40,959 nt of DNA from an uncultured Methanosarcinales archaeon (lineage in GTDB: Archaea > Nanobdellota > Nanobdellia > Woesearchaeales > PXDW01), in contig CAZENX010000002.1 of NCBI GenBank assembly GCA_964513865.1, forward strand, positions 1 through 40,959, given 5' to 3'. The notes beneath the pieces are model-generated. The model saw nothing but the letters and a program-made list of their open reading frames with translations. It was not told where the DNA came from and ran no database searches. Positions within the stretch are counted from its first letter, which is position 1. Every line of letters begins with the position of its first letter. This document shows positions 1 to 36,834 of the stretch, piece after piece. Both the position numbers and the translations under genes were made by a program.

Positions 1-2356
1 GATAGGGGATTATCCATTGTATTTCATCTATTAAACCATCTTCATCATAATCAACATAATCATAAATTTCAGCAGAAACTTTGCTTTCATTTACAATATG
101 ATAAAGTTTTATAGCATCTTTTGGTACATCATCTAATAAAGTATAAGCTAAAATATTCTCATAATGTATGTCAGAACTAACCAGAATCTTTTTGTCTTTT
201 CCTTCAAGTTCCCTTTCAATAGTTCTTGGACCAGGTGTTTCATACTCTATTTCTATCTCCTGAGCAATATCTTCAATAATTAAGGTTTTATTGTCCTCAG
301 GAATGCCAACAACCATTCCTGTAATACTATTAGCTAACCATCTATAGGCATTGACAAAAATATTACCGGAATATACAACAGAACCTGTAATCAAATTTGT
401 AGAGGTTGCTTCCACAACAATATCATCTTCCTCAATCTTTATCTTTTCAGGAGGAACCGTTTCCTTAGTTCCATTAATTACTTTAGAAACATTAATCTTT
501 ACTGCTTCTTTATGAATATCAGTAGTGATATTAAAAGTTAGATTAGAGGCATTCAATCTCTTAACCCATTTTACTGGTTTATTGACAACAACAAAACCCT
601 GTGTAAGATTTTCAGTAATGTTTACTAATGAGACATTTAATATAGATATATTTGTAATATTTGCAGTTATGTTTATACTTATATTAGTAATATTCAGGCT
701 TACATTTATAGATATGTTTTCACTAATGTTCAGACTTATATTTGTTATTTCAAAAATATTAAAAATCACCTCAGAAATGCTTTCATTTATTACTTTACTG
801 TCAGAATAATTTAAAGCAGTTAAATTAATAGTAATATTATATTCATCTACATTACTAATAACATCTAAACTAGTTTGTTCAATTCCATAAGGTTTTATCT
901 CAGCAAAATAAGCCTGCTCAAATCTTGAAGTTAAATTATCTTCTGAGGATGCTCCAAGTGTTATTTCTTCTATTGTTTTGTTTAACCTATTGTTAATAAC
1001 AACAGAAACATTTTTTTTAGTAATATTTTCCTCAACAGGCTTAACTGTTTTTTTATATCTAATTTTACTAATATTAATAAAACCATTTTCAATCTCAATA
1101 ATCAAAGTAATGTTTTTATTAACATCATCTAAGAAACAGGTATCTACACATACATATTCGAATTCAATTATTTCAGGCTCTTCAGGCGTTATATTTATTT
1201 CTGGTGTAATATTTTCAGGAGTTACATTAATTTCAGGGGTAACATTTATCTCTGGGGTGATATTAGTTGGAATTGCCTCAGGAGTTTCAGGAACTTCTGG
1301 TTCAGTTACATTTTCTGGAATCTCAGTTACATTCTCAGGTATAATCTCTTCTGTAATATTTTCTGGAGTTATATTAATCTCTTCTGTTATATTTTCATCT
1401 ATAGTTTCATTAATCTCTATACTAACATTAATTGTTTCTACAGCTATTGTTTTGTTGACATTATACTCTGGATCATAAACATCAACTTTTAAGAAAATTG
1501 AGTAATTAATCAAAATAGGGGTGTCAACATTCAGTTTTGTTTCTATAATCTCATTTGCAGATAAACTTGAATAATAAGCCTGATCAAAGCTTAAGGTTAC
1601 ATTTTTATCAGAAGCAACAGCAGATAGTGTAATCTCATTTAATTCTCTATCCAAATTATTGACTATCTGCAGAGAAAAAGAATCTTTTGAAGCTAAAGAA
1701 AAAAAATCAGGAACAACCAGACTTACAGGTTGATTTAAATCGGGGGTTTCATTAGAATCAGAAAAATTATCTGAACCTTCTAATATAACCATACCTGTAA
1801 TGCCGGTTATTCCTGCTGAAGAAAGAACATCAGAGTCCAGAACAATATAGCTTATATTGTTCAGGTATACCTTTACTTTTCCATTGAGAGAGCCAGAGAC
1901 GAGGAAAGAGTCAATATTATCTTCTAAGATAAGATTATAGCTGGCACTTTCATTAAAAAATAAATTGACTTCTTCCTCAATAATCTCTGCCTCTGGACCA
2001 ATTACAAAACCAGTAATTCCTTCATATCTAACAACAAAGAATAAAATGAAGAATATGAAAAATGCAGCAGCAATTCCTGCTTTAATATAGTTCCCTTCTC
2101 TTATTATCCTCTCATAATGATTCTTTAATCTTAAACATTTATGCAAAGCTTCTTTATTCTTTCTGATATAAGAAGCTAAACTTAAATCATGAAGTCTTTT
2201 TTTTAATAATTGATTAAATTCTTTTTTAGAAATTTCACCTTGCTTTAATCTTTCTTTTTGTTCTTCTACAAATTCCAAAGCCTTTTTTTCATCCCATCTT
2301 AATATCTTGATTTTTCTATCCAAAGCTTCAATCTTTTTATGATATTTACTAGTCAT
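1..2356 (-). CDS. Large membrane-anchored, N-glycosylation-sequon-rich surface/adhesin-like protein (partial; C-terminal part runs off the left window edge)
   Basis: Not in the supplied ORF track. My manual reverse-complement translation from ATG at 2356..2354 stayed open to position 1 (about 785 codons). N-terminus is MTSKYHKKIEALDRKIKILRWDEKKALEFVEEQKERLKQGEISKKEF. One TM helix follows (AGIAAAFFIFFILFFVV), then a long ectodomain. Four ITG[FMS]V motifs, dozens of N-x-S/T sequons, and a D-rich YDYVDYDEDGLIDE segment near the window edge. Confidence 0.6.
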   Translation of the reverse strand, partial: MTSKYHKKIEALDRKIKILRWDEKKALEFVEEQKERLKQGEISKKEFNQLLKKRLHDLSLASYIRKNKEALHKCLRLKNHYERIIREGNYIKAGIAAAFFIFFILFFVVRYEGITGFVIGPEAEIIEEEVNLFFNESASYNLILEDNIDSFLVSGSLNGKVKVYLNNISYIVLDSDVLSSAGITGITGMVILEGSDNFSDSNETPDLNQPVSLVVPDFFSLASKDSFSLQIVNNLDRELNEITLSAVASDKNVTLSFDQAYYSSLSANEIIETKLNVDTPILINYSIFLKVDVYDPEYNVNKTIAVETINVSIEINETIDENITEEINITPENITEEIIPENVTEIPENVTEPEVPETPEAIPTNITPEINVTPEINVTPENITPEINITPEEPEIIEFEYVCVDTCFLDDVNKNITLIIEIENGFINISKIRYKKTVKPVEENITKKNVSVVINNRLNKTIEEITLGASSEDNLTSRFEQAYFAEIKPYGIEQTSLDVISNVDEYNITINLTALNYSDSKVINESISEVIFNIFEITNISLNISENISINVSLNITNISINITANITNISILNVSLVNITENLTQGFVVVNKPVKWVKRLNASNLTFNITTDIHKEAVKINVSKVINGTKETVPPEKIKIEEDDIVVEATSTNLITGSVVYSGNIFVNAYRWLANSITGMVVGIPEDNKTLIIEDIAQEIEIEYETPGPRTIERELEGKDKKILVSSDIHYENILAYTLLDDVPKDAIKLYHIVNESKVSAEIYDYVDYDEDGLIDEIQWIIPY
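600..750 (-). repeat. Dense array of N-x-S/T sequons inside the surface protein (low-complexity coding repeat)
   Basis: Minus-strand translation reads NISLNISENISINVSLNITNISINITANITNISILNVSLVNITENLT, at least 12 sequons in about 47 aa. Coordinates approximate. Confidence 0.6.
1165..1425 (-). repeat. Imperfect 15-18 nt tandem coding repeats encoding (I/E)N(I/V)TPE units in the surface protein
   Basis: Minus-strand translation reads ...ENITEEINITPENITEEIIPENVTEIPENVTEPEVPETPEAIPTNITPEINVTPEINVTPENITPEINITPEEPE. The units ATAAATGTTACCCCTGAA and ATTAATGTAACTCCTGAA are adjacent. Coordinates approximate. Confidence 0.6.
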
Positions 2357-2484
2357 TTTTTCTTTTTCTTTGCCCTGTTATAGCAAGTCCAAATAGTTCT
2401 ATCATCTCTATTTGTAAGAGAAGCAATTTCATGATAGCTAAGCTTCAGTTTTTCTTTTAGATAAAGAGAAATCGCCTCTAACAC
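2353..2484 (-). CDS. Small helix-turn-helix protein (sigma-70 region 4/LuxR-like HTH); start codon uncertain
   Basis: The frame is open on the minus strand from 2673 to TGA at 2355..2353. It encodes ...KIEVPSNIFKDRSLSVLEAISLYLKEKLKLSYHEIASLTNRDDRTIWTCYNRAKKKKK. The only canonical in-frame start is GTG at 2484..2482, and there is no in-frame ATG or TTG. The stop overlaps the ATG of the downstream surface-protein gene (ATGA). Confidence 0.4.
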   Translation of the reverse strand: MLEAISLYLKEKLKLSYHEIASLTNRDDRTIWTCYNRAKKKKK

Positions 2485-2784: not shown

Positions 2785-3438
2785 TTGTTTTTCATCATTT
2801 TCTTTAGAGGCAAATTGATAAAAATAATTCCAAAAAATAAAAAATCATTCTCTGAACTTCTTGGAATAATGTTCGGAGATGGATGTCTTTCTAGATCAGG
2901 GGATAAACACTCAATTTATATAAGTGGGAATAAAGACGAATCTTCTTATATCAATTACATTAATTCTCTATTCAAGTCTATTTTTAATAAAGAGACAAAT
3001 GTGGGCTTTAGAAAAGATGAAAACACTTTGTTTATAAGATTTAGTGATAAAAATGTCTTTGATATATTTAAAAAATACTTGCCTATAGGAAAGAAATATG
3101 GAAAATTAGAAATACCTAACTTTATTCTTGATAATGAATACTATTTCTTTCAGTTTCTAAGAGGACTTTTTGATACAGATGGTTGTTTAGTTTTATCTAA
3201 ACAACACAAAAATAATCCATACTATCCAAGAATTGAAATAACAAGTAAATCAAAAAGATTTCTAAAGCAAATTCTATTATATCTAAAAAATGTTGGTTTT
3301 TATGGTTCAATCTCATCAAAAGGAGGAAAAAGTTATAGATTAGAACTGCCGGGGTTTGAGAATTTTAGTTTGTGGAGATTATTAATCAATTCAAAAAATC
3401 CAAAAAATTTGAAAAAATTTATATTGGTTAAAAAGTAG
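2785..3438 (+). CDS. Free-standing double-motif LAGLIDADG homing endonuclease
   Basis: Two LAGLIDADG-type motifs at the expected spacing: LLGIMFGDGCL and FLRGLFDTDGCL, about 100 aa apart. TTG start in the track; the exact start is uncertain. No flanking Hint/intein blocks. Confidence 0.8.
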   Translation: MFFIIFFRGKLIKIIPKNKKSFSELLGIMFGDGCLSRSGDKHSIYISGNKDESSYINYINSLFKSIFNKETNVGFRKDENTLFIRFSDKNVFDIFKKYLPIGKKYGKLEIPNFILDNEYYFFQFLRGLFDTDGCLVLSKQHKNNPYYPRIEITSKSKRFLKQILLYLKNVGFYGSISSKGGKSYRLELPGFENFSLWRLLINSKNPKNLKKFILVKK

Positions 3439-3452: not shown

Positions 3453-3515
3453 TACCTAAAATCACACAACTATAGTCAGAAATATGCCTCGGTAGCTTAG
3501 TAGGTTGAGCGTGCG

Positions 3516-3536
3516 AATTCTGACAAGAATCACGAA
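3516..3536 (+). other. tRNA-Asn intron 1 (non-canonical position 30/31) with a strict bulge-helix-bulge motif
   Basis: H helix CGTG(3510-3513)/CACG(3531-3534). The 3-nt bulges are CGA(3514-3516) and AAG(3535-3537). Inner helix ATTCT/AGAAT closed by a GACA loop. Cutting after the 2nd bulge nucleotide joins TGCG to G, restoring a perfect anticodon stem. Confidence 0.7.
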
Positions 3537-3543
3537 GCTGTTA

Positions 3544-3557
3544 ACCTATTAGCAGTC
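3544..3557 (+). other. tRNA-Asn intron 2 (canonical 37/38), 14 nt
   Basis: H helix CTGT(32-35)/GCAG(3552-3555), including one G-U pair. The 5' bulge is TA|A and the 3' bulge TC|A, adjacent to stem strand CCGCA. There is no inner helix (7-nt loop), so the motif is relaxed. Confidence 0.65.
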
Positions 3558-3644
3558 ACCGCAAGGTCGGCAGTTCGAGTCTGCCCCGAGGCGCTTTTTC
3601 ATTAAGGGCCTGTAGCATAGTCTGGCTGGTGCGCACGACTGATA

Positions 3645-3656
3645 GCTTTGTCTGAA
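3645..3656 (+). other. tRNA-Ile intron 1 (canonical 37/38), 12 nt
   Basis: H helix CTGA(3639-3642)/TCTG(3651-3654) with one U-U mismatch. Bulges TA|G and AA|A. Very short, relaxed BHB. Confidence 0.55.
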
Positions 3657-3678
3657 ATCGTGAGGTCCGGAGTTCAAA

Positions 3679-3709
3679 AGCTAAAAGGTTCAAACCTTTG
3701 GTTTGAAAG
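3679..3709 (+). other. tRNA-Ile intron 2 (T-loop, position 59/60), 31 nt
   Basis: The T stem CGGAG/CTCCG acts as the outer helix. H helix TTCA(3673-3676)/TGAA(3704-3707) is perfect. Bulges are AAA(3677-3679) and AGT(3708-3710). Cutting after the 2nd bulge nucleotide gives T-loop TTCAAAT. The intron holds an internal hairpin AAAGG-TTCAAA-CCTTT (3684-3699). Confidence 0.65.
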
Positions 3710-3750
3710 TCTCCGCAGGCCCATTCCATCACTGGACATCCTTACCCAAA

Positions 3751-3781: not shown

Positions 3782-5338
3782 ATGAAGGAAAAAATAAATA
3801 CAGAATATTCTGATGCTACGATAAACCTTGCATTAAACACTCTTGAAAAAAATAAACAAGCTTTAGTCTTTGTAAATACAAGAAGATCAGCTGAATCTAC
3901 TGCAGAAAAGATTTCTTTGAAAATAAAGTCCACTAATAAAAAGCTAATGGAATTAGCAGATAAAGTACTTCGTATTCTGCAAAATCCAACAAAGCAATGC
4001 AAAAGATTAGCTTTATGTATAAAAAAAGGTATTGCTTTTCATCATTCTGGCTTAACCCATAAGCAAAGAGAGCTTATAGAGGATAATTTTAGGAATGGTC
4101 TTATTAAAATAATCTGCTGTACTCCTACATTAGCATATGGTGTTGACCTTCCAGCATTCAGAACAATAATCAGGGATTTATACAGATATGGAGGAATACA
4201 TGGAACAGAAAATATTCCTGTTTTAGAATATCTGCAGATTTCTGGCAGGGCAGGAAGACCAAAATATGATTCTTTTGGTGAATCTATTGCTGTTTCAAAG
4301 TCTAAATCAAACAAAGAAAAAATAGTTGAGACATATGTAAAAGGAGAGCCAGAGGAAATCATTTCAAAACTAGCAGTTGAACCAGTTTTAAGAACATATA
4401 TTTTAAGTCTTATAGCAGGTGAATTTGTAAAAACAAAAAAAGAGCTTTTGGAATTTTTTGAAAAAACCTTCTATGCAATGCAATATGAAGATATAGAAGG
4501 TATTGAAAGAATCTTAACAAAAATTATTCATCTACTGGAAGAATGGGAATTTTTAAAATCAACAAAAGATGATTTTATATCTGCTAAAGAGATTAATGAG
4601 GACAAGCTGGAAGCAACTAAGCTAGGGAAGAGAGTTTCAGAGCTTTACATAGACCCGTTAACAGCTTTTAATATACTAACCTGCTTAAGAAAGGCTTCTT
4701 CAAAGATAATAAGAGAATTCTCTTTTTTACATGTAATATCCTCAACTCTGGAAATGAGGCCTTTATTAAAAACAAGAATGAAAGAATTTGATGAAATGCA
4801 GGAGAAAATAGCAGAATTTCAGGATTATTTGTTAATAAATGAGCCCAACATATATGAACCAGAGTATGAAGAATTTGTTGATACAATAAAAACAGCAATG
4901 ATATTCCAGGAATGGATAGATGAAAAGGACGAAGAGTTTTTATTGGAGAAGTATAATGTAAGGCCAGGAGAGCTAAGAGCAAAACTAACTATAGCTGATT
5001 GGCTGCTTTATGCAACAGAAGAACTAGCTAGGTTGCTTCAATTCCAGAATTTAATCAAGAAGATAAGAAAAACAAGGTTCAGATTAAAGTATGGTATTAA
5101 AGAAGAGCTTATGCCTCTTGTCAAGTTAAAAAACATCGGAAGAGTAAGAGCACGTACTTTATTTATAAACAAGATAAGAGATATTGGAGATGTAAAGAAA
5201 GCAGATTTAATAAAATTAGCACAATTATTAGGAAAAAACATAGCAATAGATGTGAAGAAACAGGTTGGACAGGATTTTTCTAAATTAAAGGTCAAGGAAA
5301 GAAAAAGAAAAGGCCAGATAAGTATAAAAGATTTTTAA
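3782..5338 (+). CDS. Hel308/Ski2-like DNA/RNA helicase, C-terminal fragment only (RecA2, winged helix, ratchet and HhH-like domains); RecA1 half absent
   Basis: The ORF begins at motif IV (ALVFVNTRRSAE). It then has AFHHSGL, motif V CCTPTLAYGVDLPA and motif VI QISGRAGRPKYD, followed by a long helical C-terminal region. Walker A, DEVH and SAT motifs are missing. Upstream sequence is tRNA genes plus its own TATA box. Confidence 0.8.
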   Translation: MKEKINTEYSDATINLALNTLEKNKQALVFVNTRRSAESTAEKISLKIKSTNKKLMELADKVLRILQNPTKQCKRLALCIKKGIAFHHSGLTHKQRELIEDNFRNGLIKIICCTPTLAYGVDLPAFRTIIRDLYRYGGIHGTENIPVLEYLQISGRAGRPKYDSFGESIAVSKSKSNKEKIVETYVKGEPEEIISKLAVEPVLRTYILSLIAGEFVKTKKELLEFFEKTFYAMQYEDIEGIERILTKIIHLLEEWEFLKSTKDDFISAKEINEDKLEATKLGKRVSELYIDPLTAFNILTCLRKASSKIIREFSFLHVISSTLEMRPLLKTRMKEFDEMQEKIAEFQDYLLINEPNIYEPEYEEFVDTIKTAMIFQEWIDEKDEEFLLEKYNVRPGELRAKLTIADWLLYATEELARLLQFQNLIKKIRKTRFRLKYGIKEELMPLVKLKNIGRVRARTLFINKIRDIGDVKKADLIKLAQLLGKNIAIDVKKQVGQDFSKLKVKERKRKGQISIKDF

Positions 5339-11992: not shown

Positions 11993-13555
11993 ATGGGGTA
12001 TTCAGATGATGATAAAAAAGTACTTAATTATTTCTTTACTAACATAGACAAGGCTGTTTTTGCAACTAAAAACTTTCATCCAGAGGTATGGGCTTTAATG
12101 CAAGCTCGCTATAGCAGATCAAGAGAAGGACTTAGGCAAAGTTTCTTAAAGCTTTTAAAAGAGGACCCTGAAAATTTTCGAAAATTAAAGGAAGAAATAG
12201 AGAAGACAAAAGGAGGCATGCAGGCAAGGCACGCGACAGAAAAAGCGATTGAATTTATGGAGAAATGGGTTCTCGGCTATGGTCATAGCTCTATAGCTGA
12301 GGGAGCTGTAATAGGTTTGGGTTTAGAAGGAGTAAGCATATTAGTTACAAAGATTATTGAAGATAATAGATTATGCTCTTTTATTGAGAAATCAACAAGG
12401 TATGTTTCTTTTGATAGTAGCTCTTTTTATATTGATCCAAATTTAGAAAAATCAGAACATTATAGGGAAATAAAAGAGCTTTTGGATTTATTGTTCCAGA
12501 CATATAAAGAGTTGCATGAGCCAGTTTTAGAATATATAAAGAAGGTAGCTCCGCTTGAAAAAGACATGGCAGAGGCTGCATGGGAAAGGGCATGCGCTGC
12601 AAGAAGATTTGATGCTATCAGGTATCTTCTTCCTACTTGCACCAAAACAAGTTTTGGATGGACAGTAAATGCCAGACAACTGGCGCATGCTATTTCAAAG
12701 CTATTGTCTCATCCTTTAAAAGAGGCGAATCAAGTAGGGGAACAGATTAAGGAAGAAGCATCAAAAGTGCTGCCTTCTTTGTTGAGGTATGCTGACAAGA
12801 AGGATTATTTTGTAAAGACAAGGAAAGAGATGAGAGACATATCTAAAGAAATTGAGATAGAAGATGAAAATACCAACAGAGTTTCTTTAGTAAAAGGACC
12901 AGAAGATGCAGATGATATTGTTATAGCAGCAATCTTATACAGATTCAAGAAGCAGCCCTTTGAGAAGATAATGGAGAAAGTAAAATCAATGTCTCAGGAG
13001 GAAAAAGAAAAGATATTTGATGGTTATCTGAAAAATATGGGAGATTATGATTACCCAATGAGAGAGCTAGAGCATGCTCAATTCATTTTTGACATTATTA
13101 TAGATTATGGCGCATTCAGGGATTTGCAGAGGCACAGAATCTGCACCCAGACAAACCAGATATTAACCTCTGAATTAGGATATGATGTTTCTAAAGATAT
13201 TGTTGAAGCAGGTTGCGAAGAAAAATACAAAAAAGCCATGGATAAGGCAAAGGAGATTCATGAAAAGATTGTGGATAAATACCCTTTGCAGGCTCAATAC
13301 ATCTTACCATTGGGTTTTAGAAAAAGATACCTTATGACAATGAATTTAAGAGAGATATATCATCTTGTCAAGTTGAGAACAACTCCTCTTGCTCATGATT
13401 CTTATAGAAAGATTGCTTACAAAATATATGATGTTTTCAAGAAAAGATACCCTTTATTAGCGAAGTATATTGTCTGCAATTACTCAAAAGAAGAGCTTGG
13501 AAGATTAAAGGCTGAGGAAAAAACCGAGAAACTAGAAAAGGTAGGTCCGTTATAA
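11993..13555 (+). CDS. thyX: FAD-dependent thymidylate synthase ThyX, long tandem (pseudo-dimeric) form
   Basis: The N-half has DNRLCSFIEKSTRY (residues 124-137), which equals RHRx2Sx4SxRY apart from the first two residues. The C-half has FRDLQRHRICTQTNQ (RHR at 380-382). At 520 aa it is about twice the size of a single-domain ThyX. Confidence 0.75.
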   Translation: MGYSDDDKKVLNYFFTNIDKAVFATKNFHPEVWALMQARYSRSREGLRQSFLKLLKEDPENFRKLKEEIEKTKGGMQARHATEKAIEFMEKWVLGYGHSSIAEGAVIGLGLEGVSILVTKIIEDNRLCSFIEKSTRYVSFDSSSFYIDPNLEKSEHYREIKELLDLLFQTYKELHEPVLEYIKKVAPLEKDMAEAAWERACAARRFDAIRYLLPTCTKTSFGWTVNARQLAHAISKLLSHPLKEANQVGEQIKEEASKVLPSLLRYADKKDYFVKTRKEMRDISKEIEIEDENTNRVSLVKGPEDADDIVIAAILYRFKKQPFEKIMEKVKSMSQEEKEKIFDGYLKNMGDYDYPMRELEHAQFIFDIIIDYGAFRDLQRHRICTQTNQILTSELGYDVSKDIVEAGCEEKYKKAMDKAKEIHEKIVDKYPLQAQYILPLGFRKRYLMTMNLREIYHLVKLRTTPLAHDSYRKIAYKIYDVFKKRYPLLAKYIVCNYSKEELGRLKAEEKTEKLEKVGPL

Positions 13556-14802: not shown

Positions 14803-16140
14803 ATGAAAATCATAAAAGCCGGATATGATAAATATCTTAACAAAGATATTAAAAAGATTATTTTTGACAAGATTCCCGACAAAAAAATCTTTTCCTCAGG
14901 AGATGTTATATTCGGAAATCCTGTTTCTAATATTGCTATTGCTTTTATTTATACATGGAAATCAGACAAAGCTCCCGAGAAGATACATGATTTGTTTGTG
15001 AAATTATCAAATTATGCCGCTGTAACAGGTTATTGGAGAACAACTAATGGAGGAAAGTATGTGTTTGCCAATATACTCTCAAATCCCAACATAAACAAAT
15101 TAGTTGTCCTGGTTTTTGAAAAGGAAGATAATGGGCATCTGTTGGTTGATGCTTTAAGGAATCTATGGGTAAAAGGTGTTGATAAAGAAGGCATTATTGT
15201 AGATAGCAAATGTCCTAATCCAAAATTTGAAGGGATTCCAAATGAAGCCCTTAATAGAGTAAGAAAACAGGCTGATCTAGTTATTTTGAAAAGGATAAAA
15301 GATTTTTCATTAGCTGAAGATTTAATAAAAGCACAGATTCAGGAGCCGGAGAATGCTTTTCATGTTGATAATTTCAAGAATTTGGAATTTTATTCAAATT
15401 TTTCTGATAAAAAATTGATGTATGATGATGGAATCAGGTTTGATAAACCTTTTATTATTGATTTTTCATCAATTGCAGAAAAGGTTAAATTTGATAAAAA
15501 AAAGTTCCAGTTATCCCAATCTATTGAGGTAGAAGATTTAGATGAAGCAGTCAGGCAGGTAGCAGCTTTTATTTATGGGCATGGTGATTTAACAGAGGAT
15601 CAGAGGGGCATAAAAACCTTTGAGTACCGCTCTTTTTCTCTAACTGTTAGGGATGCTTTATCCAAAATGCCGGAGCATTTTTCTGCTGAATATTTAAAAA
15701 AATATGTAAAAGAGTTTATGGAAGGTGTAGGGGAAAAGTTAGATGATTTTGTTTATACCTATCATGATAGAATCTTCAAAAAATGGGGGGATCAGTTTGA
15801 GAAAGCTGTTAATATTTTGAAGAAAGACCCAAATACAAGAAGAGCTTTAATTTCATTATGGGATTCTGAAAAAGATATTTTATCGGTTAATCCGCCTTGT
15901 TTAGATTTTATATGGCCCTGCATTAGAAATAATAAGCTTGAGTTTCATGTTGTTTACAGAAGCCACCATCTTGCAACAGTTGATAAAGATGGTAAATTGA
16001 TAAAAGGAGAAGGAGCATTAGTCCCTAATCTTTATGCGATTGCCATAATGCAGCAAAAGATGGCAAAAGAATTAAATATGGAAAGGGGTTACCTCTATCT
16101 GACAGATTTTAGTGGGCATTTATATATGACGGAAAAATGA
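14803..16140 (+). CDS. Fusion protein: N-terminal MtrA-like (corrinoid-binding Rossmann-type) domain and C-terminal thymidylate synthase (ThyA) fold domain
   Basis: The C-terminal part aligns by eye to E. coli ThyA: DQFEKAVNILKKDPNTRRALISLWD, NPPCLDF (Cys366 at the nucleophile position), KLEFHVVYRSHH (Arg386), LVPNLYAIAI (Asn409) and GHLY. The N-terminal part (about residues 30-180) resembles MtrA as I remember it: GNPVSNIAIAF, ANILSNPNINKLVVLV, EDNGH (His112 at the position of the Co-ligating His), GVDKEGIIV. Confidence 0.65.
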   Translation: MKIIKAGYDKYLNKDIKKIIFDKIPDKKIFSSGDVIFGNPVSNIAIAFIYTWKSDKAPEKIHDLFVKLSNYAAVTGYWRTTNGGKYVFANILSNPNINKLVVLVFEKEDNGHLLVDALRNLWVKGVDKEGIIVDSKCPNPKFEGIPNEALNRVRKQADLVILKRIKDFSLAEDLIKAQIQEPENAFHVDNFKNLEFYSNFSDKKLMYDDGIRFDKPFIIDFSSIAEKVKFDKKKFQLSQSIEVEDLDEAVRQVAAFIYGHGDLTEDQRGIKTFEYRSFSLTVRDALSKMPEHFSAEYLKKYVKEFMEGVGEKLDDFVYTYHDRIFKKWGDQFEKAVNILKKDPNTRRALISLWDSEKDILSVNPPCLDFIWPCIRNNKLEFHVVYRSHHLATVDKDGKLIKGEGALVPNLYAIAIMQQKMAKELNMERGYLYLTDFSGHLYMTEK

Positions 16141-23143: not shown

Positions 23144-24367
23144 TTATAAATTTATCTTAATAACCCTTTCTTTTATGTACTTTTCTTTAATTAAATCTTT
23201 CAATAATTTCTTTGGCTCTAGATATTTTCTCTTTACCTTTGCATATACCCTCCTGTTTTTTGTTATTGTTCTTTTGTATAATTTTCTAAACAAATCCAGA
23301 TGCTCTTTTTTACTAATAGGAGGGCCTGGATGTAGAATTTCCTTTGATAATCTTTCCTTTTTTATTATAAAATAAAATTTAGCTTTTAATTTCTTGTCCC
23401 ATTCCCAATCTTTGTATAATATATTAAAATCATTATTACCTAATCCTTTCAAAAGGTAATCAAGTGCTTTTTTAAGCTTGCTGCCAACAACATCCTCCTT
23501 ACCTTTTTTTGCTTTTATTTCTAAAATTATTAGATAATCTTTACCAGCTATTTTTTTTAACTCAGTTTCATCTATCTTTTTCTTAATAAAAAAGCTTTCA
23601 CTAGGTCTTTTCAAGAATTCCTTTGCTTTTTTTCTGAAAATATCATAGTTCTCCTTATTTAAAGCAGCAGCTGCATTTCTATCCGGCTGTATTGGATCAA
23701 CTATCACTAATGGTCCCTGGGTTTTTGATTTGTTTAATTCAAACAAAACATCTTTATGGTATTTTTTTATGTCAATTATCTCTTTATCCTTCCATCTTGA
23801 AGCTTTTCTTAAAAGATTAATAAAACCTTTATAATGGATAACTAATATATCCAAAATGTGCCCGGAGAATCCTCTAATATAAGATTCAGCCCCATATATT
23901 CCCTGGGCTTTGCAGAATGCTTTTGCCAACCTTATATCATCCTTTATTTTTTTATTGGCATTTTTATTAACAAAATTAACATGCAAAGGGCTCATGTCTG
24001 TTACATTCTCTATCTTTTTGTAATCCTTTACCTTTAAAACAGGAACTATTTCAAATATTAACTTATTATAAAGCTGATAATAATCCCTGCTTCCATGGAC
24101 CTTTTTTATTCTTAAATTCTTTATTGCCTTTCCTAAAAGCTTTGATATATCCTTTCCCTTATACGAATAATCAAATATTACAAATAAATCTACATCATAG
24201 TCATCTTTAAGAAAAGTTCCTTTAGCTATTGAGCCCCCTTTTATGCATTTTGCCTTTAATCTTGCTTTTCTTAATAATTTGTTTATTCTGCCAACTACTT
24301 CATCAACCTCTTTAAAAACCTCTTTATCAGGCCTAATCTCTTCTTTTAATTGTTCTAAAAACTCCAT
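23144..24367 (-). CDS. cca: CCA-adding tRNA nucleotidyltransferase, archaeal class I
   Basis: GGSIAKGTFLKDDYDVDLFVIF (GS...DxD polbeta-type NTase motif). Size 407 aa. Consistent with the tRNA genes here lacking encoded CCA. Confidence 0.8.
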   Translation of the reverse strand: MEFLEQLKEEIRPDKEVFKEVDEVVGRINKLLRKARLKAKCIKGGSIAKGTFLKDDYDVDLFVIFDYSYKGKDISKLLGKAIKNLRIKKVHGSRDYYQLYNKLIFEIVPVLKVKDYKKIENVTDMSPLHVNFVNKNANKKIKDDIRLAKAFCKAQGIYGAESYIRGFSGHILDILVIHYKGFINLLRKASRWKDKEIIDIKKYHKDVLFELNKSKTQGPLVIVDPIQPDRNAAAALNKENYDIFRKKAKEFLKRPSESFFIKKKIDETELKKIAGKDYLIILEIKAKKGKEDVVGSKLKKALDYLLKGLGNNDFNILYKDWEWDKKLKAKFYFIIKKERLSKEILHPGPPISKKEHLDLFRKLYKRTITKNRRVYAKVKRKYLEPKKLLKDLIKEKYIKERVIKINL

Positions 24368-35523: not shown

Positions 35524-36834
35524 TTATTTTTTCTTTTGTATTCTTTCCTGAATCTTTTTCAGATTCTCTTCAGCTTTTTTCATGTCTTCCTCTGTCACTT
35601 CTTGTTTGGATTCAACTTTCTCTTCTTTAATATCTTCTAATTTTTCTTCTACCTTCTTTTCCTCTGCTTCTTTCTCTTCGGTTTTTTCAGGTTCTTCTGT
35701 AATCTCTTCTTTTGCCTCTTCACTTTCTTTAGTTTCCTTTTTTGGTTGTTCCTGTTCTTCTGTTTCTTCTTCCTTCTCTTTTTTTTGTTCTATTTTAGTT
35801 TCTTTCTCTTTTTCCTCCTTTGTTTCTTTTTTTGTAGTTTCTTCTTTCTTTTCAGGTTCTTTTATTTCTTCAACTTTTTCTTCTTCAATTTTTTCCTCTT
35901 TTGTTTCTTTAGGTTTCTCTTCTGTTTTGCTAGTTGCTTCTTTCACCTCTTCTTGTTTTTCTTTGACTTCTTCCATTTTCTTTTCCTCTTGTTTTTCAGG
36001 AATATTAAGTTTATTAGCTAAATCTTTCATTTGTGCCTCAGCTTTTGAAATCAGATTCTTTGTGGTTAAATCAGTAATTAAATCTTTGCTTATTGCTAAA
36101 TTTTTAGAATCATTAAATGCCTTTGATAATAAAAACTGAATATTGTCTTTGGTTATATATCCTGCCTCTAAAGCTAAATTAAAAACAGCTCTTGCAGCAT
36201 TTTGAATGTCTGCCAGATACTTTGATTCATCTATTGCCAAAACATCTTTTTTGAAGATATCTCCATTTTCATATACAGCTATTATATTTAAACCAATCTC
36301 CATTGGTTCTATACCTAATCTTGTCAAAACCTTTGCTTTATCCTCTGTTATAACTTCCCCTTCTTTTGCCACCAAAGAATCCTCTTTTATAGCCACTTTC
36401 CCGTTTTCTATACCAGCTTTAATTCCTGCCTGTCCTAACTCTCCTATAATTGGTCCAGGTGCAAATCCTGTCGGACCTGCTGGAACTACGATATCCTTAG
36501 GAGCTTTCTGTCCTGGTTTTGCAGCTGCCTTGGATTTGCTTTTTTCCAAAAGCTTATATAATTTGAAAGGGTTCTCTTTTGAGAATATCAAAGCAGGCAT
36601 TCCTTCTAAATAAGGTTCAATCTCTTTTATCTTCTCTTTTGAGGATTTTTCTATTGCTAATTTTAATAACCTTCTCTTTGTCATTTTTATGACTATTGTA
36701 TCCCTTAAAGAAGACACCATCTGCTGTAATTGTTTTGCTGGCAGATTTTCCATATTTACAGCTGCTATAATCGGATAAGTATCTATTAATTTACTAAAAT
36801 CTTCTACAGTTTTTTTCTTTTGTTCTGATGTCAT
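35524..36834 (-). CDS. rplP0: Ribosomal stalk protein P0 (uL10) with a long K/E-rich C-terminal extension
   Basis: The uL10 core has YPIIAAVNMENLPAKQLQQM, GMPALIF, PAGPTGFAPGPIIGELGQAGI and GIEPMEIGL. The last 150 aa or so are EEKK/ETKE low complexity ending KKIQERIQKKK. Confidence 0.85.
   Translation of the reverse strand: MTSEQKKKTVEDFSKLIDTYPIIAAVNMENLPAKQLQQMVSSLRDTIVIKMTKRRLLKLAIEKSSKEKIKEIEPYLEGMPALIFSKENPFKLYKLLEKSKSKAAAKPGQKAPKDIVVPAGPTGFAPGPIIGELGQAGIKAGIENGKVAIKEDSLVAKEGEVITEDKAKVLTRLGIEPMEIGLNIIAVYENGDIFKKDVLAIDESKYLADIQNAARAVFNLALEAGYITKDNIQFLLSKAFNDSKNLAISKDLITDLTTKNLISKAEAQMKDLANKLNIPEKQEEKKMEEVKEKQEEVKEATSKTEEKPKETKEEKIEEEKVEEIKEPEKKEETTKKETKEEKEKETKIEQKKEKEEETEEQEQPKKETKESEEAKEEITEEPEKTEEKEAEEKKVEEKLEDIKEEKVESKQEVTEEDMKKAEENLKKIQERIQKKK

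Follow-up and report, generated by a model that had tools for sequence, protein, structure and literature searches.

Two adjacent, doubly interrupted tRNA genes for asparagine and isoleucine on a Woesearchaeota-like contig

A contig on which the usual programs find no tRNA gene raises the question of whether it truly lacks such genes or whether they are interrupted in a way that hides them. The sequence concerned is contig CAZENX010000002.1, which in its entire length of 40,959 nt constitutes the window analysed here and which is Woesearchaeota-like (DPANN), as judged from an adjacent 518-aa helicase that places it in Candidatus Woesearchaeota. A preliminary description made from the letters of the sequence had proposed that its interval 3486-3723 holds two tRNA genes with four introns, two of these at the non-canonical sites 30/31 and 59/60. 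We conclude that this interval very probably contains two functional genes, tRNA-Asn(GTT) and tRNA-Ile(GAT), which lie head-to-tail in a tandem that is conserved in relatives, are probably transcribed as one precursor and carry two bulge-helix-bulge (BHB) introns each. Both are multi-intron tRNA genes with a non-canonical site, that is, genes with at least two introns of which at least one lies outside position 37/38. The evidence that carries this conclusion is the restoration of two perfect cloverleafs by excision of the four segments, the presence of a BHB core at each junction in the register that the cloverleaf dictates, and the conservation of these features, with covariation, in related genomes.

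ARAGORN in default mode and Rfam at its gathering threshold both report zero tRNAs in the window. When one intron is allowed, ARAGORN wrongly reports the first gene as a Gln(CTG) tRNA and does not detect the second, as had been anticipated for genes of this kind, and at lowered stringency it produces spurious Ser and Arg calls that were rejected against the orthologues. When its filters are relaxed, the tRNA model of Rfam reaches 46 bits on 3486-3593, and this only by accommodating 44 inserted nucleotides within the anticodon arm, and 13.8 bits (E = 5.9) on 3606-3705, where the hairpin at 3684-3699 acts as a decoy T arm. Once the four segments listed in Table 1 are excised, ARAGORN calls a tRNA-Asn(GTT) of 73 nt and a tRNA-Ile(GAT) of 75 nt in which all stems are perfect and the loops read CUGUUAA, CUGAUAA, UUCGAGU and UUCAAAU. 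The number of genes and introns, their boundaries, anticodons, coordinates and sequence elements are those originally proposed, and the orthologues agree with them. A custom search for additional tRNA genes whose T arm and acceptor stem are both intact found tRNA-Asn alone, and no second tRNA-Asn or tRNA-Ile gene was seen on the contig.

In archaeal tRNA splicing, the endonuclease EndA cleaves the precursor within the bulges of a BHB motif, a 4-bp helix with a 3-nt bulge at either end, the bulges lying on opposite strands and each being cut behind its second nucleotide, and the exons are then ligated by RtcB. Each of the four junctions was tested for this motif at the single register dictated by the cloverleaf. 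At this register, the central (H) helix has 4/4 pairs at Asn 30/31 (3510-3513 CGTG with 3531-3534 CACG; bulges 3514-3516 CG-A and 3535-3537 AA-G, the hyphen marking the predicted cut), at Asn 37/38 (3538-3541 CTGT with 3552-3555 GCAG; bulges TA-A and TC-A) and at Ile 59/60 (3673-3676 TTCA with 3704-3707 TGAA; bulges 3677-3679 AA-A and 3708-3710 AG-T), and 3/4 pairs at Ile 37/38 (3639-3642 CTGA with 3651-3654 TCTG, with a U33.U mismatch; bulges TA-G and AA-A). The joint chance of four such cores at the cloverleaf register is about 2e-6. At the two canonical sites the boundary can be moved by one nucleotide without consequence: excision of 3545-3558 yields the same tRNA-Asn as excision of 3544-3557, and excision of 3644-3655 the same tRNA-Ile as that of 3645-3656.

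A strict hBHBh' motif, the substrate of alpha4 or alpha'2 EndAs of narrow specificity, has helices of at least 2-3 bp stacked directly on either side of the core. The motif at Asn 30/31 had been presented as strict, but the two non-canonical BHBs are not fully so. Asn 30/31 possesses a 5-bp inner helix (3517-3521 ATTCT with 3526-3530 AGAAT), and its outer helix comprises just 2 bp unless it is extended by a helix between the D arm and the second intron that is described below. At Ile 59/60 the T stem of 5 bp (3668-3672 with 3711-3715) serves as outer helix, and a directly stacked inner helix is absent, with one G.U pair in the window and 54% pairing across 13 genes with an intron at this site; this intron is therefore of the relaxed hBH type. 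Both 37/38 introns are devoid of an inner helix. The hairpin AAAGG-TTCAAA-CCTTT within the 59/60 intron, described as a copy of the T arm, is present and misleads Rfam as noted above, but it is not conserved: its stem is shared with the homologous intron of the related locus L003 (GCA_028279725.1; loci of the comparative set carry the prefix L), where the loop differs (AAGG-ATCATG-CCTT), and it is missing from the other 59/60 introns. A functional role of this hairpin was accordingly discarded.

The comparison with relatives is based on three related contigs reached through the 518-aa helicase protein, on 119 further genome loci retrieved with an intron-neutral tRNA-Ile pattern, and on a metagenome scan for tRNA-Asn genes with any insert of 12-40 nt between G30 and G31, which returned 33 contigs, all with genuine tRNA-Asn genes. 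Among the 111 tRNA-Ile(GAT) genes that could be parsed, 45 are intron-less, 45 have the canonical intron only, 15 bear an insert in the T arm and six in the variable region. The T loop TTCRAAT is uninterrupted in L001 and 95 other tRNA-Ile genes, and 49 orthologues contain CTGATAATCG as contiguous DNA. The tRNA-Asn(GTT) genes that adjoin tRNA-Ile (n = 29) comprise 25 with contiguous GCGTGCGGCTGTTA (L003 and 24 others) and four with an insert at 30/31, and orthologues with contiguous CTGTTAACCGCA, which have no 37/38 intron, exist as well. The spliced tRNA-Asn of the window is 100% identical to contiguous DNA of L099 over 45 nt (positions 22-66), and the 3' half of the spliced tRNA-Ile, including the T arm, is 100% identical to contiguous L075 and L109. 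All four junctions, including those at the two non-canonical sites, are thus verified by natural intron-less alleles in which they occur as uninterrupted sequence.

The interrupted genes are equally informative. The 30/31 intron of tRNA-Asn was recovered in 31 distinct variants of 14-38 nt, 30 of which have an H helix with 4/4 pairs and one with 3/4, while shifted registers reach 4/4 in at most one of the 31. In a fixed-register alignment, 96% of the cells are paired versus 87.7% after shuffling (0/500 shuffles reach the observed value), slid registers give 18-65%, and 28 cells have changed on both sides where 10.2 would be expected. The last pair of the helix (position 4) is G-C in 18 variants, A-U in 10 and G-U in two, and nucleotide 28 covaries both with its partner in the intron and with its mature partner, nucleotide 42 (G/C/C in 18, A/T/T in 10). 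As for tRNA-Ile, 13 of the 15 T-arm inserts lie at 59/60 and leave a UUCRAAU loop upon removal. In these 13 genes the H helix has 4/4 pairs in nine and 3/4 in four, never 4/4 at another register, and is 92% paired overall; the T stem is 100% paired, and a compensatory change from A57-U to G57-C is found (A-U in eight, G-C in two). For the canonical 37/38 introns of tRNA-Ile in relatives, 3/4 pairs, as in the window, are the rule, with 3/4 in 37 and 4/4 in 15 of 62 cases, and any shifted register gives 4/4 in at most two.

Introns in these genes appear to come and go. The 59/60 intron of the window is homologous to that of L003 (31 nt each, 21/31 identical by eye), is absent from L001, which is a closer relative, and is replaced in L002 by an intron at 53/54, from which ongoing gain and loss can be deduced. 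This 53/54 intron of tRNA-Ile(GAT) occurs in L002 (640-778) and in L089, with an H helix CCGG/ACGG that has 3/4 pairs, and the variable-region intron of six tRNA-Ile(GAT) genes (L020, L042, L090, L101, L111 and L114) is always found alongside a canonical intron. The highest intron load was met in four tRNA-Asn(GTT) genes on the metagenome contigs CEPX01401268.1 (L127), Ga0190359_1001363 (L129), Ga0137829_11240567 (L139) and Ga0208373_1051289 (L154), which harbour four introns each, at 30/31, 37/38, 43/44 or 44/45, and 59/60. Their BHB helices mostly have 4/4 pairs, but two sites have 3/4 and the 59/60 site of L139 has 2/4, and excision gives an Asn(GTT) tRNA of 73 nt. These four cases were verified individually, the automatic parser having mis-split some canonical introns.

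The two genes of the window are separated by a spacer of 12 nt, and the order Asn to Ile with a spacer of 2-15 nt is found in 15 genes, the window included. A TATA-box-like element precedes tRNA-Asn (Table 1), with a similar TTTATAAA 5' of tRNA-Asn and tRNA-Ile in L001 and L002, and inspection of the sequence showed no separate TATA box before tRNA-Ile. The likeliest reading is that the pair is probably transcribed as a dicistronic precursor.

Among the alternatives, the one that survives best is that the two loci are decaying tRNA pseudogenes, with insertions that have accumulated and are no longer removed, so that no functional tRNA results. The rejection of both loci by standard finders would fit decay, as would the lack of a TATA box for tRNA-Ile itself and the T-run that separates it from tRNA-Asn. 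Decay would not, however, leave exons that are perfectly compatible with a cloverleaf and up to 100% identical to intron-less orthologues, nor inserts that drift in sequence and length while their BHB cores are kept through compensatory changes. The same architecture recurs, moreover, in dozens of genomes and contigs, and no other tRNA-Asn or tRNA-Ile gene was seen on the contig. We regard decay as very improbable. A different layout or identity has slightly less in its favour still and is highly unlikely: the first gene could be a single-intron tRNA-Gln(CTG) at 3486-3594, as ARAGORN run with option -i proposes with an intron of 24 nt, or the second a tRNA at 3606-3705 in which the AAAGG/CCTTT hairpin is the T arm, as in the Rfam alignment through that hairpin. 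The Gln reading has to accept a G.A mismatch within its anticodon stem as well as an aberrantly long variable arm; the 13.8 bits of the Rfam alternative are far under the 29-bit threshold, and its acceptor stem is broken; and orthologues that have no 30/31 or 59/60 intron display the GTT and GAT anticodons and normal T arms contiguously. Practically negligible, finally, is the idea that the inserts belong to another class of element that does not depend on EndA (self-splicing introns of group I or II, a small mobile element, or expansion segments that stay in the mature tRNA), for although an open reading frame (ORF) for a LAGLIDADG endonuclease lies 48 nt upstream and archaea, Woesearchaeota among them, are known to have group I introns (PMC6125680), the inserts measure 12-31 nt, far below the size of ribozyme introns or mobile elements, Rfam yields no intron family, all four fit the BHB register, the LAGLIDADG ORF is outside the tRNA genes and linked to them only in the closest relative, and, by established tRNA structure, a retained 31-nt insert in the T loop would destroy its interaction with the D loop.

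With two functional, doubly interrupted genes as the preferred reading, a further question is how two BHBs can be used in one small precursor. In tRNA-Ile the two motifs are independent and compatible with the cloverleaf, the 59/60 BHB being stacked on the T stem. In tRNA-Asn they are in conflict. The strands of the 30/31 BHB engage C25-G28 in the central helix and pair A23-G24 with C32-U33 in the short outer helix, which clashes with three elements: the D stem, the uppermost part of the anticodon stem, and C32-U35 in its role as central-helix strand of the 37/38 BHB. Nucleotides 27-28 and 32-33 are needed by both BHBs. The 37/38 BHB, in turn, has an outer helix of 1 bp before removal of the 30/31 intron and acquires the 5-bp anticodon stem as outer helix thereafter.

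Folding of the tRNA-Asn precursor revealed an unexpected helix in the minimum free energy (MFE) structure, in which 3495-3508 pairs with 3541-3553, i.e., with U35-A37 and nucleotides 1-10 of intron 2 (3544-3553, ACCTATTAGC), a segment with complementarity to the D arm. The helix prolongs the outer helix of the 30/31 BHB and also appears in the fold constrained to contain that BHB. In nearest-neighbour calculations, whose energies are approximations and limit the helper role proposed here to that extent, the window precursor has -37.5 kcal/mol with the 30/31 BHB plus this helix, -25.6 kcal/mol with the 30/31 BHB alone and -28.4 kcal/mol in a cloverleaf-like fold with the 37/38 BHB. The best fold with a forced BHB core, in which the helix is kept, reaches -42.0 kcal/mol, and the MFE is -44.5 kcal/mol. 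The best BHB fold outscores the best cloverleaf-like fold in 26/26 precursors, by a margin that falls from 5.85 to 2.44 kcal/mol when the 5' part of intron 2 is shuffled. The z-score of the D-arm:intron duplex against shuffled introns averages -3.1 where a 30/31 intron is present (26 genes) and -0.62 where the canonical intron is the only one (15 genes; Mann-Whitney p = 6e-6), and D arms pair with their own intron at -11.6 kcal/mol versus -9.0 kcal/mol with introns of genes that have another D arm (p = 3e-4), both p-values being optimistic because the relatives are phylogenetically non-independent. Covariation is visible between nucleotide 16 and nucleotide 5 of the intron (C-G in nine genes, U-A in five, U-G in two), and D arms of the GCUCAGCCGGUAG type are matched with introns of the type CUACC...CUGAG. 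This covariation of the canonical intron with the D arm was confined to genes in which the 30/31 intron is present as well.

These results suggest a model in which the canonical intron helps to present the non-canonical site and imposes an order of splicing. The first 10 nucleotides of intron 2 would pair with the 5' strand of the D stem and with the D loop, leaving the 3' strand of the D stem free and lengthening the outer helix of the 30/31 BHB. Since the 30/31 BHB needs the D-stem 3' strand that this pairing frees, the 30/31 intron would be removed first, the RNA would refold into the cloverleaf, and the 37/38 intron would be removed last. An experimental precedent for removal of a 37/38 intron as the last one exists in Cyanidioschyzon merolae (PMC3728597). 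All four introns would be released by EndA, with cuts behind the second position of the 3-nt bulges, and the exons sealed by a ligase of the RtcB type; end trimming would fall to RNase P and RNase Z, and the CCA-adding enzyme, for which a Pfam search of the window ORFs finds a gene at 23144-24367, would supply the CCA that neither tRNA gene encodes. As to the type of EndA, the literature makes the epsilon2 or heterotetrameric enzyme suggested in the preliminary description doubtful for this organism: an alpha4-type EndA with an extra 'L3' loop has been reported in multiple DPANN lineages, among which one Woesearchaeota genome was sampled (PMC5829648). It is conceivable, and we put it forward tentatively, that in one Woesearchaeota-like clade the 37/38 intron of tRNA-Asn acts as a built-in guide that keeps the precursor in an alternative fold, forces the order 30/31 then 37/38 and may thereby let an alpha4-type endonuclease handle a non-canonical site, in a lineage that stacks up to four introns in a 73-nt tRNA gene.

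Several observations weigh against parts of this picture. A loose, register-free scan of the two precursors for BHB motifs gives 10 sites versus a shuffled mean of 12.4, and 28 versus 18.1, which is not above chance, and the BHB motif alone is therefore not diagnostic here; its significance derives from the register that restores the cloverleaf and from the comparative data. The unconstrained RNAfold MFE structures of both precursors do not form the BHBs and were not counted as support for them. The T-run CTTTTT directly after tRNA-Asn could stop transcription ahead of tRNA-Ile. Neither EndA nor an RtcB-type ligase is encoded on the 41-kb contig, as judged by Pfam on about 58 window ORFs, and a tblastn search with the M. 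jannaschii EndA against all related loci retrieved gave nothing usable. Regarding the helper helix, RNAalifold on 26 relatives recovers only the D stem and the anticodon stem and not the pairing of the D arm with intron 2, and 5/31 variants bear the 30/31 intron without a canonical one, from which it follows that the helper helix is not obligatory. The cautions given above for the p-values and fold energies belong to the same side of the balance.

Beyond the tRNA genes (Table 1), the window includes several unusual ORFs. The nearest is the free-standing LAGLIDADG ORF with a double motif at 2785-3438 (+), which ends 48 nt 5' of tRNA-Asn and may encode a tRNA-gene-associated homing endonuclease. 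The same ORF accompanies a tRNA-Asn in L001 (70% amino acid identity), and distant homologues (31-34%) lie about 30-200 nt from tRNA-Ile in L071 and L096, in other orientations. A role as intron-homing factor was considered and rejected, the linkage to tRNA-Asn being restricted to the window and its closest relative and intron content being uncorrelated with it. Downstream, the Hel308/Ski2-like helicase at 3782-5338 (+) consists of the C-terminal half only (Helicase_C, HTH_61 and archaeal helicase domain 4) and has no RecA1/DEAD domain; no ORF with a DEAD domain is present on the contig. Its homologues number thousands at E <= 1e-20, and among 120 matches listed they measure about 500-580 aa, mostly about 518, so that from sequence comparison the protein looks like a lineage-wide short or split form rather than the result of a local truncation. 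A cluster for dTMP synthesis (SHMT, thymidylate kinase, dUTPase) contains a ThyX ORF at 11993-13555 (+) which, with 520 aa and two Thy1 stretches, is double the usual length, and, next but one to it, an ORF at 14803-16140 (+) in which an MtrA-like domain occurs together with part of a ThyA domain. At the left end, an open frame at 2-2377 (-) of at least 792 aa extends past the start of the window and is rich in N-x-T/S and EINITPE-like repeats, which is why its product is probably secreted or located at the surface; two plus-strand ORFs of low complexity, 525-809 and 978-1478, are antisense shadows of this frame. Ribosomal protein P0 (L10), at 35524-36834 (-), is unusually long (436 aa), and the extreme AT skew of its region (-0.44) suggests a low-complexity C-terminal extension.

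Table 1. Positions in the window of the two tRNA genes, of their exons and introns and of associated elements.
Feature	Position	Strand	Remarks
TATA-box-like TTTATAAA	3444..3451	+	42 nt 5' of tRNA-Asn; putative promoter of archaeal type for both tRNA genes, read from the sequence
tRNA-Asn(GTT) gene	3486..3593	+	108 nt; two introns; discriminator G; CCA not encoded
tRNA-Asn exon 1 (positions 1-30)	3486..3515	+	
tRNA-Asn D-stem 5' strand and D loop	3495..3508	+	can pair with 3541-3553 in the unspliced precursor
tRNA-Asn intron 1	3516..3536	+	21 nt; non-canonical site 30/31
tRNA-Asn exon 2 (positions 31-37)	3537..3543	+	GCTGTTA, anticodon GTT
tRNA-Asn intron 2	3544..3557	+	14 nt; canonical site 37/38
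tRNA-Asn exon 3 (positions 38-73)	3558..3593	+	
Spacer CTTTTTCATTAA	3594..3605	+	12 nt between tRNA-Asn and tRNA-Ile
tRNA-Ile(GAT) gene	3606..3723	+	118 nt; two introns; discriminator A; CCA not encoded
tRNA-Ile exon 1 (positions 1-37)	3606..3644	+	
tRNA-Ile intron 1	3645..3656	+	12 nt; canonical site 37/38
tRNA-Ile exon 2 (positions 38-59)	3657..3678	+	
tRNA-Ile intron 2	3679..3709	+	31 nt; non-canonical site 59/60, T loop
T-arm-mimicking hairpin AAAGG-TTCAAA-CCTTT	3684..3699	+	within the 59/60 intron of tRNA-Ile
tRNA-Ile exon 3 (positions 60-73)	3710..3723	+	

The genomes that share these features carry diverse names. The 13 carriers of the 59/60 intron in tRNA-Ile are metagenome-assembled genomes (MAGs) that are labelled Woesearchaeota, are unlabelled or are titled Methanosarcinales or Euryarchaeota, and none of the 13 is labelled Micrarchaeota. 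The Woesearchaeota-type Asn-Ile tandem with the same types of intron occurs in many MAGs titled 'uncultured Methanosarcinales archaeon' that stem from binchicken/SRP co-assemblies (L010, L036, L040-L044, L046, L047, L071, L072, L087-L090, L092, L098, L102, L108, L115 and L118). These titles look taxonomically wrong.

In practical terms, the value of the window lies mainly in annotation. A default pass with ARAGORN or Rfam would list the contig as tRNA-free, and, with both genes missed, tRNA-Asn and tRNA-Ile(GAU) would seem absent from a small DPANN genome. The comparative set is worth more than the window alone: the 31 variants of the Asn 30/31 intron, the 13 genes with the Ile 59/60 intron, the tandem, the four-intron genes and the canonical intron that covaries with the D arm provide natural substrates and a hypothesis that can be probed by mutation, concerning how an EndA of limited specificity deals with non-canonical sites and what fixes the order in which introns are removed. 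Three aspects may be new. The Asn 30/31 and Ile 59/60 introns may represent a hitherto undescribed case of persistence at fixed sites across many Woesearchaeota-like genomes, and the complementarity between the D arm and the canonical intron, tied to the 30/31 intron, may likewise be new; neither is described in the searchable literature, in which the coverage of primary work is partial. The presence of four introns in one tRNA-Asn gene, found in relatives of the window, may be the third: according to a 2014 review, archaeal tRNA genes have three introns at most (PMC4033280), and a full-text literature search, beyond the reach of which much of the primary literature lies, found no archaeal tRNA with four.

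The phenomenon as such is known. A published list of non-canonical intron positions in archaea includes both 30/31 and 59/60 (PMC4090602), and multi-intron tRNAs in DPANN have been published as well, which makes the window a further example in a lineage where it is expected; with the precedents discussed below, the interpretation in the preliminary description is right, and what it interprets had been seen before. The closest parallel for the T-loop intron is pre-tRNA-Cys(GCA) of ARMAN-2 (Candidatus Micrarchaeum acidiphilum), whose 13-nt 59/60 intron of the hBH type is cleaved in vitro by an epsilon2 EndA (Fujishima et al., 2011; PMC3239211). Both cases share the site, the hBH-type BHB on the T stem and a DPANN host with many disrupted tRNA genes, but here the gene is a tRNA-Ile, the intron has 31 nt, and cleavage is predicted from sequence. 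At the level of the lineage, tRNA disruption is raised in multiple DPANN groups and has been linked to the alpha4-type EndA with the L3 loop (Kaneta et al., 2018; PMC5829648). The sets predicted there for several DPANN genomes, including that of Woesearchaeota RBG_13_36_6, show the same phenomenon of increased disruption with multiple introns; they are given as proportions per genome, and neither the tandem, the D-arm complementarity nor the introns at Asn 30/31 and Ile 59/60 are described in that work.

More distant systems share single aspects of the arrangement. Multi-intron tRNAs are classic for the Thermoproteales (Sugahara et al., 2007, 2008; PMC4090602, PMC4033280), in which single genes likewise hold at least two BHB introns, placed at the canonical position as well as at non-canonical ones such as 30/31 and 59/60, and are missed by ordinary finders. 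Those organisms are Crenarchaeota with an (alpha-beta)2 EndA, and the spread of their introns is attributed to transposition of similar introns among tRNAs, whereas the introns considered here stay at a fixed site within one tRNA species across genomes. The split tRNA-Lys(CUU) of Nanoarchaeum equitans and Staphylothermus (PMC4090602) is likewise disrupted at 30/31, and its BHB is presented by a long helix formed through complementarity outside the tRNA proper, in the sequence adjoining the splice site. There, however, two genes with leader sequences are joined in trans, whereas here the intron is in cis and the proposed helper is made of the D arm and the second intron. The nuclear tRNA-Ile(UAU) of C. 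merolae, finally, has three BHB introns, with sites in the T loop and at 37/38 (Soma et al., 2013; PMC3728597), and the 37/38 intron that is removed last in that alga would also be the last to leave tRNA-Asn here. In this eukaryote, the order has been attributed to the stability or position of the BHBs, whereas the order proposed for the Woesearchaeota-like tRNA-Asn would depend on the pairing of an intron with a distant part of the exon.

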